Shown here one piece after another: positions 11,633 through 40,198 of a DNA stretch of 64,000 nt (its first letter is position 1; every line of letters starts with the position of its first letter). A model generated the notes under the pieces. It saw only the letters and a list, made by a program, of their open reading frames with translations. It made no database searches and was not told the DNA's origin. The stretch spans positions 216,690,001 through 216,754,000 of the forward strand of contig OZ024743.1 in the NCBI GenBank assembly GCA_964016885.1, written 5' to 3'. A program made the translations under genes and the position numbers. This stretch comes from Eledone cirrhosa. Taxonomy: Eukaryota.

Positions 11633-11762
11633 CCCGTGCCGATGCATCAGTTTCTACGGTTCCAATCTGCTGGCAGTGTTCCAAGTCGAACAACCAGGAG
11701 CAGAACAATAGGTAATGTTAGTATACACTAGTAGTTTGGAGGTGAACCGTGTCATCAGCGGG
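11633..11762 (-). ncRNA. Type I HHR with ~97-nt stem II; U16.1 changed to C
   Basis: CCCG-CTGATGA-C-ACGGTTC...GAACCGT-A-GAA-ACTGATGCATCGGC-A-CGGG. Confidence 0.7.
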
Positions 11763-11849
11763 AGTTCACCTGGCATGCTAATCCCTCCTGTTGCTGGTTG
11801 CAAGTGAATGTAGTTGTTTTCAATATATATATATATATATATATATATA

Positions 11850-11945
11850 CAGGTTGTCCCGAAAAATTTGACATCATTTTAAAAGCTAATATCTCGAAAA
11901 CTACTAAGTCTAGCTCAATGATGTCAAATTTTTTGGGACACCCTG
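11850..11945. mobile_element. Tc1/mariner-type MITE in (TA)n
   Basis: TIRs CAGGTTGTCCCGAAAAATTTGACATCA / TGATGTCAAATTTTTTGGGACACCCTG with TA flanks. Confidence 0.85.
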
Positions 11946-12252
11946 TATAAATATATATATATATATATATATATAATACACACCCTCACATCAACATACT
12001 AACATATATGTCTGAATGCGTATACAATGGAAATAATGTATACATACATCCTTTCAATCCTTTTAATGCTGCTTTCGAACAATGTTAACATTTTATTGGC
12101 TGATTTAGACTATATTTTATATATCTATGTAAATTACCTCTCCAATATTTAATAACTGCTAAAGCTGGGCATTTTAATAAAACAATGTATTGTTTCTGAT
12201 AATATAATAAATATATAGCGAACAATTGTCAACACTAATTTATAAATTATTA

Positions 12253-12620
12253 CCGTATTTTCCGGTCTATAGGATTCTTTTTACCTAAAACATTGATGCC
12301 ACAATCTGACTGCATCGTATATGATATATCTTCTACTCGGACTTTCTATTTCAAAATAAAGTTATATGAATTATATTCTAAATTGGAGTGCCCTGTTCCT
12401 TGTGCCTTGAAGCGAAATAAATTTTCCGGATACATTTATGCAGGGCTGTATTTTTTATCCATATCTCTTTTAGTTAATTATATGAGACCAACATTTTTCT
12501 CATCCTTATTACGTTCTGTATGTACATAGTTTTGTGGTTTATCACCGTAAGCTGTACCGTTTCTATGTCTTCTTATGCTGCTCTAAATTTAATCCAATTT
12601 TTCTTGTTATAAATCTAATC
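12253..12620. mobile_element. Possible pogo/Tigger-like DNA transposon remnant
   Basis: TA-CCGTATTTTCCGGTCTATA resembles a pogo-type TIR; no intact ORF. Confidence 0.3.
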
Positions 12621-35931: not shown

Positions 35932-37264
35932 GAGAGAATTAGTATATCTACCAACATATGTATACAGATGTATACCCATGCTACCAAATATATATGTTAT
36001 GTCTTAGTACCTTTGTGGTTCTATTCAGGGGGATGCAGAACAATAATATGAAAGAATTAAAATAAGAAAATTTTAAAAATTAAAAATTAACTTACTTACT
36101 AAAATTTTCACTCCAACCAATGAGTTTCAGTAAGGTAGTAAATATAGTTACGCAACGCAACTATAGAGAAGTCCTTACGTTATCAGGGAGTCTATTCTCA
36201 GCTAAGTTCCCAGGCAATACGCGGACACTAGGAACCCATATAAAAATAATAATTCAGTAGATGGAATAAAGCTAGCGGGGACTAAATTCCAGGGCACTGA
36301 AAAAATTCACTGCCTACTTGGATAGTGGCAAATTATAAAGAATCAATCACGTGACACTGAGGTTAATCAGTGAGGAGTGGTGTGGTATTATGACAAGAGC
36401 CTAACTACTACCATGAACCATAGCAGTAAATTTTGGCAAGTTTTGCTCAACAAATAATTTGGAGATAAATATAGAGAATTAGTATATCTACCAACATATG
36501 TATACAGATGTATACCCATGCTAGCAAATATATATGTTATGCCTTAGTACCTTTGCGATTCTATGCAGGAGGATGCAGTACAATAATATGAAAGAAGTAA
36601 AATGAGAAAATTTTAAAAATTAAAAATTAACTTACTTTTAACTTTTAATGTTTAATTTATAATTTATAATTTATAATTTTTAATTTTTAATTTTTAATTT
36701 TTAAAATTTTCTTATTTTACTTCTTTCATATTATTGGTCTGCAACCCCCTGCATAAAACCACAAATGTACTAATACATAACATATATATTTGCTAGCATG
36801 GGTATACATCTGTATACATATGTTGATAGATATACTAATTCTCTATATTAACTCCAAATTATTTGTTGAGCAAAACTTGCCAAAATTTACTGCTATGGTT
36901 CATGGTAGTAGTTAGGCTCTTGTCATAATACCACTCCACTCCTCACTGATTAACCTCAGTGTCACGTGATTGATTCTTTAGAATTTGCCACTGACCAAGT
37001 AGGCATTGAATTTTTTCAGTGCCCTGGAATTTAGTCCCTGCTAGCTTTATTCCATCCACTGAATTATTATTTTTATATGGGTTCCTAGTGTCTGCGCATT
37101 GCCTGGGAACTTAGCTGAGAATAGAATCCCTGATGACGTAAGGACTTCTTTATAGTTGCTTTGCGTAACTATATTTACTCCCTTACAGAAACTAATTAGT
37201 TGGAGTGAAAACTTTAGTAAGTTAATTTTTAATTTTTAAAATTTTCTTATTTTACTTCTTTCAT
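35932..37264. mobile_element. Retrozyme-like family D: 540-bp unit in head-to-head arms, each longer than one monomer
   Basis: AGAATTAGTATATCTACC at 35935 and 36475; 36690-37264 is the reverse complement; HHRs at 36110-36191 (minus) and 37125-37206 (plus). Confidence 0.9.
37125..37206 (+). ncRNA. Type I HHR with ~51-nt stem II (family D)
   Basis: TCC-CTGATGA-C-GTAAGG...CCTTAC-A-GAA-ACTAATTAGT-T-GGA; the other arm has stem I ACTCC/GGAGT but core CTGATAA. Confidence 0.8.
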
Positions 37265-38196
37265 ATATATATATATATATATATATATACACCCCACTCT
37301 CAAGCGTGAACCTAATACCAAACACGTTTCGTATCTGTACTCCTTCTTGTCGTTGTTGTTAATGTTTTTTACTTTTTCAATATATATATATTTGCTCACA
37401 CCCCACTCGCGTCGGACGGTCTGCTGTCTCTCTCGCCCATGACATCAACACAGTTTAAGCTGATCGCACTCCCATGTGCTTGTTTTTTCCTATCTTTGCG
37501 TTGCTATCCTTCTATGTTTGTTTACTTGTCTCGCTCGCTTTACGCGATTTACTTGTCCCAATAGCTTTATTTAGCTATTGCTCGCACCAGCTGGAGGTAT
37601 TATCATATGTAACCCATGTGCAACCACGCAGTATTAATTCTTCTCGTGTTTTTATATATATATATATATATATTCAATTCTATACGTTGGTAAAACAACG
37701 ATAAGGCGCTCAGATATCAATTTAAAGCTCAAATGTGGTTTACTGTAGGTACAGAATAGCGAGAGGTATTTCAGGGGTAAATCCATTTGGTATTCTTCCG
37801 GTCATCTTAGATTTATAATCACAGAACATATATTAACAAAGAAAACAGGACACCAATTCAACAGATCATATTTTATTTATTTGAACAAATAAATAATGTA
37901 TTAACTGTTGAACTAGCTGACCTATTTCTTTTGTTAATATATATGTATATATTTGTGTGTGTGTGTGTGTGTGTGTATGTGTGTGTGTGTGTGTGTGTGT
38001 TTGTGTGTGTGTGTAGATGTGGTGTTGAATGACACGAGCATGAGTTCTAAACAGTGACGTAGAGTTGAAATATTTATTACTAATAAGTGGTGAAACTCCT
38101 GATTTATAAAACTTACCACTTAGCCTTAATAAAAATGCACACACACACAAAAATACACCTATATATATATATGTATATATATATATATATATACAT

Positions 38197-38640
38197 TAAT
38201 TCGAAATATTAACAACATAGATATTCTTGTGATAAAATAAATGATGCATGACAAACCCTGATATAGTAGATGGTTAAGATTCAGTTATGGTAGTGAGTAA
38301 TATATGACAAAACTCAATATTTATATACCTTAATATTGAAACATGAAAAATACCTACATATAATACATATAATAGAGAGGGTGCGTGTGAGAAAGCTTAA
38401 AAAATATATAGCAGCAATATAATTGTAAAATATTATTTTATCTGATGAGGACGTACTGTTGAAGTTAACTCAGTACCTCTGAAATATGTATAATAACATA
38501 TACTTGATCACAAGAATATCTATTTTGTTAATATTTTGATTTAATATTAATAACTCCGGAAAACCTTTTGCTGTTGAGTGCTTCCAATCTATTGTAAAAC
38601 TCATTCTTTGATTTATTCATTGAACCTTTTTTAACCTTTA
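38197..38640 (+). mobile_element. pLTR-like insert in (TA)n with HHR-like motif (38438-38494) and a 36-bp inverted 5' segment
   Basis: CTGATGA-GGACGTACTG..CAGTACCTCT-GAAA-TATGTA; 38198-38233 inverted at 38507-38543. Confidence 0.65.
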
Positions 38641-39563
38641 AATATATATATATATATATATGTGTGTGTCTGTGTGTGTGTGTATGCCTAATAGGGATGA
38701 ATATGTTTAATACCTATATATATTTATAAGTGTGTGTTATATATATATATGTATATGTGTATGTGTGTATGTTATATGTATGTATCTGTGTGTGTGAGTG
38801 AGAATGTATCAGTGCGTGTGTATGCTTGTGTGTGTGTGTGTGTGTGTGTGTGTGTGTGTGTGTGTGTGTGTGTGTGTGTGTGTATTTATTCATTTCTCAT
38901 ACTGGTTGTTGTTATTTTGTTACATTCTGATATTTTTTTCTCAAATTATTTTTGAAAACGTGTGAAATTTTCCTATTTTTCATGCATTCATGTTTGTGAT
39001 ACGATTCTATAAAAAAATCATTCTGTTTGCTCATTTCAGTTTGTGTTTACTTATCTACATACGTGCCTATGTGTAGTTGTGCGTCTAAGTACATGATTTC
39101 TGTTTGTATATATTGTTCCGTTTTTAATTCAGTTACTTTTTTAACCAATGTCTTTTCTATCCTCTCTCGTCAACGAGATATTGCTACATTATATTTTTCA
39201 TGTATCATCCCTCAATATCGTAGTTAAACACAAACGTGTGCGTGCACTCACACACATGAATATATATATATATATATATATGTGTGTGTGTGTGTGTGTG
39301 TTTCTTTGTGTGTCTGTATGTTTGTGCGTGCGTGTGTGCATATGTGCGTGTGTGTCTATATATATATATATATATATATATATATATATATATATATATA
39401 TATATATATATATATATATATAGTAATAATAAATGTGAAGAAGATTAAAATCCGAAGAAGGCTCGATAAGGATTATATATATATATATAAAATAAGGGAG
39501 ACGATCTTGTTAAGGGTCAAAGCAGTGATTCTTTGCTTAATCATATATATATATATATTTATA

Positions 39564-40198
39564 TATAATAACTAGAAATTGATTAACATATAAATATACA
39601 TGGATAATCACAGGAGATAATTTTTACAAGTGTGTAAGTAAACATAGCTAGGAAGGTAACTAAATAAAGTTAACCAGAACTTCAAAAATAGATACCTTAT
39701 AATATGAATAATCTTCCCTGTATATATTCCATTAAAGAAATATATTTCACCAATTAATCGAATGGTAAACCATGGAGGCCGGTACTTGGATTTTCAACAA
39801 GGAAAAAGTCCAGCGATCTATGTTTACACTTCAAATTCAAATCAGCGACTGGCCAGCAACACGTGCTGCTTCTACTAGAAATACACACATCATACCAGCT
39901 TCGTCACAGTGGCGTGAATAGGGTTATCGACAACTAGAAACAGCAATCAAATCCTTTCAACTTGTTGAAAATCCAAGTACCGGCCTTCATGTTTTACCAT
40001 TCGATTAATTGGTGAAATATATTTCTTTAATGGAATATATACAGGGAAGATTAATCATATTATAAGGTATCTATTTTTGAAGTTCTGGTTAACTTTATTT
40101 AGTTACCTCCCTAGCTATGTGTGCTTACACACTTGTAAAAATTATCTCCTGTGATTACTCATGTTTATTTATATGTTGATCAATTTCTAGTTATTATA
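39564..40198. mobile_element. Foldback family E: ~238-bp inverted arms, 158-bp spacer, variant HHR in each arm
   Basis: 39564-39801 is the reverse complement of 39961-40198. Confidence 0.9.
39961..40045 (+). ncRNA. Variant type I HHR with U3-A8 core and AUA site (mirror copy at 39716-39802, minus)
   Basis: CTTG-TTGAAAA-T-CCAA...TTGG-T-GAA-ATATATTTC tttaat GGAATATAT-A-CAGG. Confidence 0.7.

Follow-up and report, generated by a model that had tools for sequence, protein, structure and literature searches.

Why do several families of hammerhead ribozymes in one stretch of a genome carry a mismatch at the base of stem II, where positions 10.1 and 11.1 are expected to pair, and why is stem II in most of them so long? 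The stretch in question, hereafter the window, comprises the 64,000 nt at positions 216,690,001-216,754,000 of contig OZ024743.1 in the 3.0-Gb assembly of Eledone cirrhosa, and is AT-rich and dense in (TA)n. Using structure-aware scans of the window we recovered six families, 11633, A, B, D, E and F, all of them type I hammerheads with stems I-III, an open stem I and the core CUGANGA / GAAA / UH or its U3-A8 variant (10.1, 11.1, C3, G8 and position 17 follow the hammerhead ribozyme numbering). Families 11633, A, D and E lie inside 11633-40045, with B and F outside that range; the letters B, E and F were tied to loci from the mismatch types and lengths given in a preliminary description of this DNA. 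The explanation that we favour, with a probability of roughly 0.55, is that these hammerheads are borne by or derived from Penelope-like elements (PLEs), that they would be cut as dimers, and that the long stem II would act as a scaffold whose pseudoknot frees the 10.1-11.1 pair.

We observe a long stem II in five families, as had been described (42-97 nt): 97 nt in 11633, 92 in A, 74-75 in B, 51 in D and 42 in E, with 14 in F. Family 11633 is present as a decayed copy at 11633..11762 on the minus strand (C3 at 11758, C10.1 at 11751, A11.1 at 11655), with a branched stem II, a near-palindromic stem III and a cleavage triplet that reads GCA here and GUC in the family. Family A occurs twice in an insertion between (TA)n tracts (33076..35568, minus strand), which consists of a 5'-truncated Hydra-clade PLE and an inverted copy of its pseudo-long terminal repeat (pLTR): the hammerhead of the 3' pLTR (33116..33236, minus, core 33231) has A10.1/A11.1, a 92-nt stem II, a palindromic stem III and a GUC site, and the inverted copy (35293..35413, plus, core 35298) is likewise A/A with a 92-nt stem II. 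Family D lies in an inverted pair (36046..37266) of a ~540-bp non-coding unit that is tandem elsewhere. One of its hammerheads (37125..37206, plus, core 37130; C10.1 at 37137, A11.1 at 37187) runs from a 6-bp proximal helix through an internal loop to a distal hairpin and has a palindromic stem III; the other (36110..36191, minus, core 36186) is decayed, with G8A and C/U at 10.1/11.1. The family E hammerhead (39712..39806, minus, core 39797) combines the U3-A8 core UUGAAAA with U/U, a 4-bp proximal helix, a weakly folded 42-nt stem II, a long stem III and a 9-bp stem I, and its inverted copy (39961..40045, plus, core 39965) is truncated in the stem I 5' strand. Family B forms a head-to-head pair at 3542..3830 (cores at 3639 on the minus and 3734 on the plus strand), with U/U, a 74-75-nt stem II and a cleavage site decayed in both; a third copy (59139..60961, minus, core 59236) is downstream of a broken Hydra-type endonuclease frame at 59929-60961. 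The short family F has U/U and a 4-bp stem II at 1521..1563 (plus, core 1527) and C/A in a second copy at 4731-4773 (minus, core 4767). The core UUGAAAA is found in E and in most B copies, and this U3-A8 core is a described compensation, not decay.

The preliminary description had reported a mismatch at 10.1-11.1 in all six families, and across the genome we find it in nearly every copy. Scanner matches are C/A in 47/48 D copies, A/A in 44/44 A copies, U/U in 36/36 B copies and U/U in 39/40 E copies with U/C in the other (40/40 mismatched), and 10.1/11.1 are unpaired in 19/21 copies of 11633. The scanner loci are the best matches to the window copy, and therefore patterns with both sites free, taken in chromosome order, were added; counted by eye, these give C/A in 98/100 D and U/U in 99/100 E copies, and U10.1 in 97/100 B copies among the listed matches, position 11.1 falling beyond the listed stretch. 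The G10.1-C11.1 pair, the usual type I hammerhead trait, was not encountered in the window copies of the six families, and no family consensus with a normal pair was found when we looked for one. The mismatch is an inherited family trait rather than decay. We also considered the known bulge followed by a shifted G-C pair, which was rejected: the pair after the mismatch is A-U or U-A in 11633, A, B and F, C-G in E, and G-C in D only. Three contig runs of a single sample, which overlap part of the D unit and differ from it at many sites, were too weak to use; the mismatch sites are absent among 40/50 variants listed. An expression look-up listed no RNA data set containing the D unit, which speaks neither for nor against its transcription.

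The mismatch alone does not define the class, because it is also present in short-stem families, is labile in two long-stem superfamilies and is already published. One long-stem superfamily of 30 sequences has G-C in 11, A-U in 6, U-A in 1 and non-pairs in 11 of 29 sequences at 10.1/11.1, another shows A/G, U/U, G-U and G-C, and family F itself alternates between G-C and U/U, because the copy at 32587 falls in its family cluster. In print, U/U appears in 14/26 Hydra rows and C/A in the charophyte PLE-X1_cBra (Craig 2021, PMC8557442, File S2). Cervera and de la Pena 2014 (PMC4209133) describe G10.1-C11.1 as highly conserved with a 5' bulge and show U/U in the Hydra magnipapillata motif of Fig. 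S3; ~60,000 axolotl motifs also have U/U at the helix II base (HHR_Amex2; Cervera and de la Pena 2020, PMC7229834), and Perreault 2011 (PMC3088659) reports a natural U10.1/U11.1, cited as the best-tolerated mispair, together with the U3-A8 compensation. The short-stem families at L177, L219, L043 and the L301 region combine the U3-A8 core with a normal G-C pair. The core change and the mismatch are independent, because short-stem U3-A8 families keep G-C.

These patterns bear on an alternative that we hold to be unlikely, namely that the extension is an inert, tolerated loop II insertion folding out of the way, that the mismatch reflects relaxed constraint from Hydra-clade ancestors, and that these are ordinary slow PLE hammerheads. 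The lability of 10.1/11.1 in the two superfamilies would fit, as would the composition, which alone predicts a non-pair ~60% of the time. Chance would give ~40% pairing, however, and of 19 long families 13 are mostly mismatched, 4 are mixed and 2 are mostly paired. Family D also argues against this alternative, since its C/A lies on a CpG, at which one C-to-T change would give U-A, and is nevertheless kept in almost all copies; it persists through at least six changes of the adjacent helix, and in the D lineage it looks like the product of selection.

Next, we investigated the folding of the extensions, which the preliminary description had called irregular hairpins. This wording suits A, B and D; in 11633 stem II is branched, with a proximal helix and two hairpins, and the extension of E is weakly folded. 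Compared with shuffles, stem II reaches z values of -5.3 in D, -3.8 in A, -2.8 in B and -2.3 in 11633, E folds no better than shuffles (z +0.6), and 10/14 long families have z of -2 or lower. In 11633, 84% of cells are paired vs 25-39% when the structure is slid; covariation across its 21 copies is not above shuffles, as expected since this is an old, neutrally decayed family. In the 30-sequence superfamily, paired cells amount to 86%, and double changes number 53 vs 20 in shuffles. Families A and B align with 18 other long copies (the 3' part, out of register for A and B, was excluded) and share a distal internal loop, non-canonical and 25-35 nt away from the core, its first site unpaired in 19/20 sequences and mostly A opposite G, closed by a 7-bp distal helix that covaries (39 double changes vs 16). 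In D, judged by eye, at least six proximal-helix variants keep pairing while the C/A and the loop word UUCUC persist. A conserved alternative helix in D (window 37160-37210) would block the active fold. The extension is folded and covarying in most families and, as far as such patterns tell, under structural selection. The structural subclass proposed in the preliminary description is, as a long-stem II class, real, abundant and mostly structured and conserved; the mismatch is not its defining trait.

The families had been taken for unrelated, and this was not borne out, as A and B align and share the distal loop and the endonucleases found upstream at consistent distances are of the Hydra type. 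Shared descent is the simpler cause of the recurrence, because A and B align and Hydra-type endonucleases lie upstream of long-stem families. Regarding the extension as an inert insertion, we note that its length (36-116 nt) and shape vary freely among long families and that E is not significantly folded, both of which would suit an arm that does nothing; against this, unpaired loop letters stay fixed while the flanking helices turn over. One further long family, at L274, L286, L294 and L311, has a 101-116-nt stem II with a TA-rich insert and C/A in 9/10 copies, and lies downstream of a Hydra-like endonuclease.

The preliminary description had offered tertiary contact, protein binding or recognition by the reverse transcriptase (RT) as possible roles for the extension. 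Protein binding is suggested only by the A/B loop. An explanation that we regard as quite unlikely has the extension bind the element's RT-endonuclease or a host chaperone, which would switch cleavage on or bring non-autonomous RNAs to the enzyme. A non-canonical loop closed by a covarying helix at that distance from the core could be such a site, the non-coding D and E units retain the extension, and in a lizard PLE the hammerhead requires the protein of the element for cleavage (PMC11167929). Set against this, no motif common to all long-family extensions was found, and RT initiation in the lizard element maps to the 'tail' end of insertions (PMC11167929), whereas the A end lies away from stem II.

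Tertiary contact, in contrast, has statistical support in about half of the families. We observe that in many long families the 4-8 nt directly upstream of stem I have their complement in the loop strand that immediately follows the proximal helix, 5-12 nt from the core. The hammerhead fold places stems I and II next to each other, and in that arrangement the flank and loop strands run antiparallel. The complementary words are GAGAA/UUCUC in D, GGCG/CGCC in 11633, GCUGG/CCGGC in E and UCAC/GUGA in B, and in further long families GGAAA/UUUCC, GAGU/ACUC with GAGC/GCUC, UGGGC/GCCCA, AAAGAA/UUCUUU and GAAGAAU/AUUCUUC. In the window, the predicted D partner is the 5' flank GAGAA at 37117..37121 (plus), facing the stem II loop strand at 37146-37150, which reads UUCUC in the family and UUCUU here; the predicted 11633 partner is the stem I 5' flank at 11767..11770 (minus), where the family has GGCG vs CGCC directly past the proximal helix, and is partly decayed here. 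The D loop word is kept in 93/100 listed copies (by eye) while both helices vary, and RNAalifold predicts the D flank-loop helix unprompted. In 11633, 79.8% of flank-loop cells are paired over 21 copies, and covariation is no better than in shuffles.

We scored one representative per family, 5' flank against 5' loop strand, relative to permuted partners. The 14 long families of the discovery set score 10.4 vs 7.5 permuted (p-value 2e-4), the other three flank/strand pairings are null in that set, and all four are null in 12 short families; with fixed windows, 13 discovery families give a p-value of 0.005. Pooling 23 groups yields -4.2 vs -2.6 kcal/mol (p-value 5e-5), with a median duplex of -4.4 kcal/mol or stronger in 11/23 groups. 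Complementarity of at least 4 bp between the stem II loop and the stem I periphery lies above chance in the discovery and pooled sets but is marginal in the blind sets, which speaks for an inert insertion, and is absent in A. On these sequence comparisons, the loop-flank pairing is likely a pseudoknot in about half of the families.

Several results weigh against the pseudoknot and the freedom that it would give to 10.1-11.1. The idea was drawn from the discovery set itself, and the families are related, so that the p-values are optimistic. Six hold-out families (one a B relative) give a p-value of 0.09, with a control pairing at 0.03, and eight groups fetched without sight of the flanks (one already known; 17/40 fetched copies passed the stem filter) give 0.049, with controls at 0.053, 0.076 and 0.96; in the 23 pooled groups the 3' loop strand scores too (p-value 0.02). 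Clade structure defeated an attempt to prove the pseudoknot within a family by mutual information: the single double change at a pseudoknot pair (U-A in 14, C-G in 13) coincides with a division into two clades, and columns unrelated to the pair show covariation of equal strength. Family A has no flank-loop match and the worst score of all (+0.9 kcal/mol), most of its relatives are also without a match, and the register offsets differ between families. Some long families with flank-loop complementarity retain G-C at 10.1/11.1, and per family the tie between stem length and mismatch is weak (10/14 long vs 3/12 short, p-value 0.047). For only some of the window copies does folding predict the full hammerhead as the structure of lowest energy, and an upstream survey of copies for endonucleases revealed no convincing open reading frame (ORF) link for E or 11633.

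The loop strands could also pair with the stem I strands themselves, so that single copies would stay uncut until dimerization or refolding, and we consider such an attenuator very unlikely. The D consensus fold does pair the 3' loop strand with the stem I 3' strand over 8 bp, and the B 5' flank prefers the 3' side of stem II (-7.2 vs -3.1 kcal/mol for the 5' side). The 3' flank pairings are nevertheless null in the discovery set, which leaves no general rule, and in most families monomers are already kept from cleaving by the weak stem III. We rejected a 3'-flank pairing of the A-like superfamily, visible by eye in some copies, as inconsistent and AT-rich. In three groups (L385-L393, L402-L404 and L019) the loops are pyrimidine-rich on both strands and lie opposite a purine-rich flank, and the opposite loop strand matches that flank in parallel over 3-4 positions (scored without a null). 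There, 3-4 consecutive U.A-U / C.G-C triples are possible, such as those formed by expression and nuclear retention elements (ENEs).

We then examined which elements carry the motifs. Family A copies share more than 1.6 kb upstream and end shortly past the ribozyme, at a median of 57-73 nt or more past GAAA. In the full A unit of locus L031, direct repeats of 798 bp carry two hammerheads at a spacing of 3,527 bp, with an inverted partial copy in front, and this frameshifted copy encodes, on the ribozyme strand and flanked by pLTRs, a single ORF in which an RT is followed by a GIY-YIG endonuclease at the C-terminal end. The window insertion shows 94% identity to this 3.5-kb unit, and its broken frame (34122..35074, minus) spans the RT thumb, a CxCX5C linker and the GIY-YIG endonuclease (tblastn 91-99% to the L033 ORF). 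The A protein has RWK, DKT in place of DKG and no GxKF/Y, and the A and B endonucleases combine the CxCX5C linker with CxxC and CxH flanking the conserved E and N and lack CCHH, all of which are Hydra-clade features (Craig 2021, PMC8557442); by eye, the A frame parallels Hydra-1_Obim motif by motif. By inspection, A and B insert into (TA)n, and B has the same endonuclease type ~800-950 nt upstream. Judged from these motifs, A and B lie in pLTRs of autonomous Hydra-clade PLEs, an assignment made from motifs and by-eye comparison, and for B from the endonuclease. Assignments of A and B to Neptune, Nematis, Naiad or Poseidon were rejected on domain order and motifs, and three PLE ORFs matched no Pfam family.

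On the same strand, 9/15 distinct A, 16/36 B and 1/48 D copies have a Hydra-like endonuclease upstream, as do 3/10 and 4/17 copies of two further long families. The single D case is L078, where D follows the end of the endonuclease. A short bulged G-C family follows a CCHH endonuclease in 7/24 copies, and there are single links of other kinds, including CCHH enzymes before two long or mid-length copies, which look like neighbouring insertions. The units of D and E, ~540 bp long, are non-coding and occur in tandem and inverted (a 540-bp trimer in L067, a 547-bp dimer in L121), which is the non-LTR retrozyme layout of non-coding tandem units with a type I hammerhead each; 11633 is an old family. 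The D, E and 11633 units are likely derived from PLEs, the origin also proposed for metazoan retrozymes (Li et al. 2026 preprint).

Under the explanation that we favour, the pieces could work together as follows. Transcripts through tandem pLTRs would be cut at position 17, and the palindromic stem III of A, B, D, F and 11633 would imply use as dimers, as in the dimer cleavage via stem III of other PLE hammerheads (PMC4209133, PMC6765202); E, with its long stem III, could work as a monomer. The long stem II would serve as a scaffold whose internal loop pairs with the stem I 5' flank, replacing the usual loop I-loop II contact. This helix would lie wholly inside the 5' product and could already be in place ahead of stem I closure. 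It would bring stems I and II into line, as do the stem I-stem II pseudoknots that raise cleavage 20- to >100-fold in a tested natural hammerhead (Perreault 2011, PMC3088659). With such support the 10.1-11.1 pair may become dispensable and free to drift. Closing the loop would be the main task of the distal hairpin; A and B are the exception, their conserved loop being a possible further site for docking or for protein. What the sequences themselves show are the motifs and their copy numbers, the folding and covariation of the extensions, the A/B Hydra-type ORFs and the complementarity; from them we infer cleavage, dimers, the pseudoknot and its link to the mismatch.

It is extremely unlikely, in our view, that the motifs have lost catalysis altogether and persist because they do something else for the pLTR, for example as a promoter, in RT priming or in RNA stability. 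A lizard PLE is inserted in vitro without need of cleavage, with no reads ending at the cut site (PMC11167929), and published PLE hammerheads are slow (PMC4209133), which would be compatible with a dead motif; yet the core residues, the U3-A8 compensation (B and E), the NUH sites and the palindromic stem III are all retained across 26 families.

To place these families among known systems, we compared them with published hammerheads. They resemble the Hydra PLE hammerheads of Craig 2021 in being type I, near the 3' end of the element and inserted in (TA)n, with a short palindromic stem III, and differ from all 26 Hydra rows there, including the octopus Hydra-1_oBim, whose stem II plus loop is at most ~26 nt, vs 42-97 nt with internal loops or branches here. 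The nearest cases in that source are two spike-moss PLE-X entries of ~50-55 nt, flagged as deviating; its relaxed core search covers 7-17 nt, and eight 'half-core' cases at 35-50 nt are set aside (PMC8557442). The minimal PLE hammerheads of Cervera 2014 (PMC4209133), for which the accessible text describes no tertiary contact, share the pLTR site, the inverted and tandem copies, the dimer-type stem III and the U3-A8 variant. The descriptor used there allows a stem II of 3-7 bp and a loop of 3-10 nt, and the present motifs are therefore undetectable by it. D, E and F resemble metazoan non-LTR retrozymes in their non-coding tandem units, type I hammerheads and U/U (axolotl); unlike these (PMC7229834 and the available passages of Li 2026, which mention no long stem II), the units here are ~540 bp and often inverted. 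In the pseudoknots of Perreault 2011 (PMC3088659) the partner is a terminal loop or tail, mostly in microbial or single-copy hammerheads, whereas the predicted partner here is the internal loop of a long stem II at a retrotransposon end. In the PK hammerhead of Zhan 2024, helix II is replaced altogether, which is a different fold. Hammerheads or ribozymes go unmentioned in the accessible text of an O. vulgaris repeat paper (PMC13282606), and literature searches returned no 40-100-nt stem II or flank-loop pseudoknot in animal PLE hammerheads, although figures, closed supplements and subscription journals may hold cases. Each ingredient has precedent; the new part is the long, structured stem II, the mismatch being already in print.

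We also quantified how abundant these motifs are. Among 80 evenly spaced 10-kb samples of the genome (800 kb), 66 hammerheads scored at least 11, compared with 0 in reversed and 0 in shuffled sequence, and 40 further samples (400 kb) added 19 vs 0 in the control. Of these 85 matches (1.2 Mb), 25 have a stem II of at least 40 nt, 23 of them mismatched, and 56 have one below 30 nt (11 mismatched, 28 paired, 17 bulged). Very roughly, the 1.2 Mb of samples extrapolate to ~60,000 long-stem copies genome-wide. Seven exact genome-wide patterns gave 5,014, 1,827, 1,946, 5,829, 7,498, 1,173 and 639 matches, 23,926 in all vs 25 with the patterns reversed; the D pattern accounts for 7,498 (control 0) and the E pattern for 1,173 (control 1). 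A first look at genome candidates had set lower bounds of at least 863 for A, 1,460 for B, 1,319 for D, 1,064 for E and 140 for 11633. Pattern matches are partly non-intact (17/40 hand-picked copies passed the stem filter), and a few are tandem-repeat artefacts. An Rfam scan of the window returned nothing at the gathering score; below threshold, the sole hammerhead among 150 listed of 259 rows is a short G-C copy at 32534-32605 (HH9, 37.7 bits vs 52), and at the E-value level Rfam returned microsatellite noise.

Earlier descriptions portray PLE hammerheads as minimal and slow, with no tertiary contacts; if the long arm gives a docking contact, the present families would be candidates for efficient PLE ribozymes. 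Rfam and standard descriptors miss these motifs, so that invertebrate hammerhead counts and claims of ribozyme-less PLE clades may need revisiting, and even an inert arm would leave an annotation gap of more than 20,000 motifs in one genome. The occurrence of U/U, C/A, A/A, A/G and G-C within single lineages provides a natural series for probing the role of 10.1-11.1. More speculatively, and with considerable doubt, there might be a large, descriptor-invisible class of retrotransposon hammerheads (intact copies here: very roughly 60,000) that traded G10.1-C11.1 for a modular stem II with a flank-capturing loop, an ENE-like pyrimidine-purine-pyrimidine triple helix in at least three families and a distal loop read by the protein of the element itself, which could explain some PLEs listed as hammerhead-less or as having only a 'half core' with 35-50 nt between its parts (Craig 2021; octopus and squid Naiads are among them).

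Finally, the window holds other hammerheads and repeats. Those with a normal or bulged 10.1-11.1 lie at 32550-32594 (minus; 32587, G-C), 38436-38498 (plus; 38442, G-U) and 18397-18476 (minus; 18469, the known bulge plus G-C). The hammerhead at 25874 (plus) also belongs to this normal-or-bulged group; its stem II measures 50 nt and its cleavage site is decayed. Within 15031-15560, a short hammerhead (core 15493, plus) that has G-C and the classic A bulge adjoins a broken minus-strand GIY-YIG frame without linker cysteines, which we read as Poseidon-like. The open frame at 2579-3280 (minus) is of a different PLE type, having a CX4CxxC linker and a CCHH-type endonuclease; at ~235-250 nt downstream of its relatives lies a hammerhead family of the 18-nt bulged G-C kind. 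An 820-bp inverted repeat at 28640-29563 carries in its arms a hammerhead-like 3' half with no 5' core, and a similar 3' half motif with a long stem III is found near 28640-28690 (minus). The region 31000-31960 (minus) resembles, by eye, the 3' part of the RT of a long interspersed element (LINE). Elsewhere in the genome, locus L204 is a tandem array of 11 hammerhead units at 310 bp and G000 C1:92.98-93.01 Mb holds more than 20 hammerhead copies spaced ~660 bp, both of which are retrozyme-like satellites. A frequent short interspersed repeat, which we take to be of the octopus tRNA-derived short interspersed element (SINE) type, occurs at 18874-19373 (tandem), 23543-23684, 42851-43018, 50635-50980 and other positions of the window.

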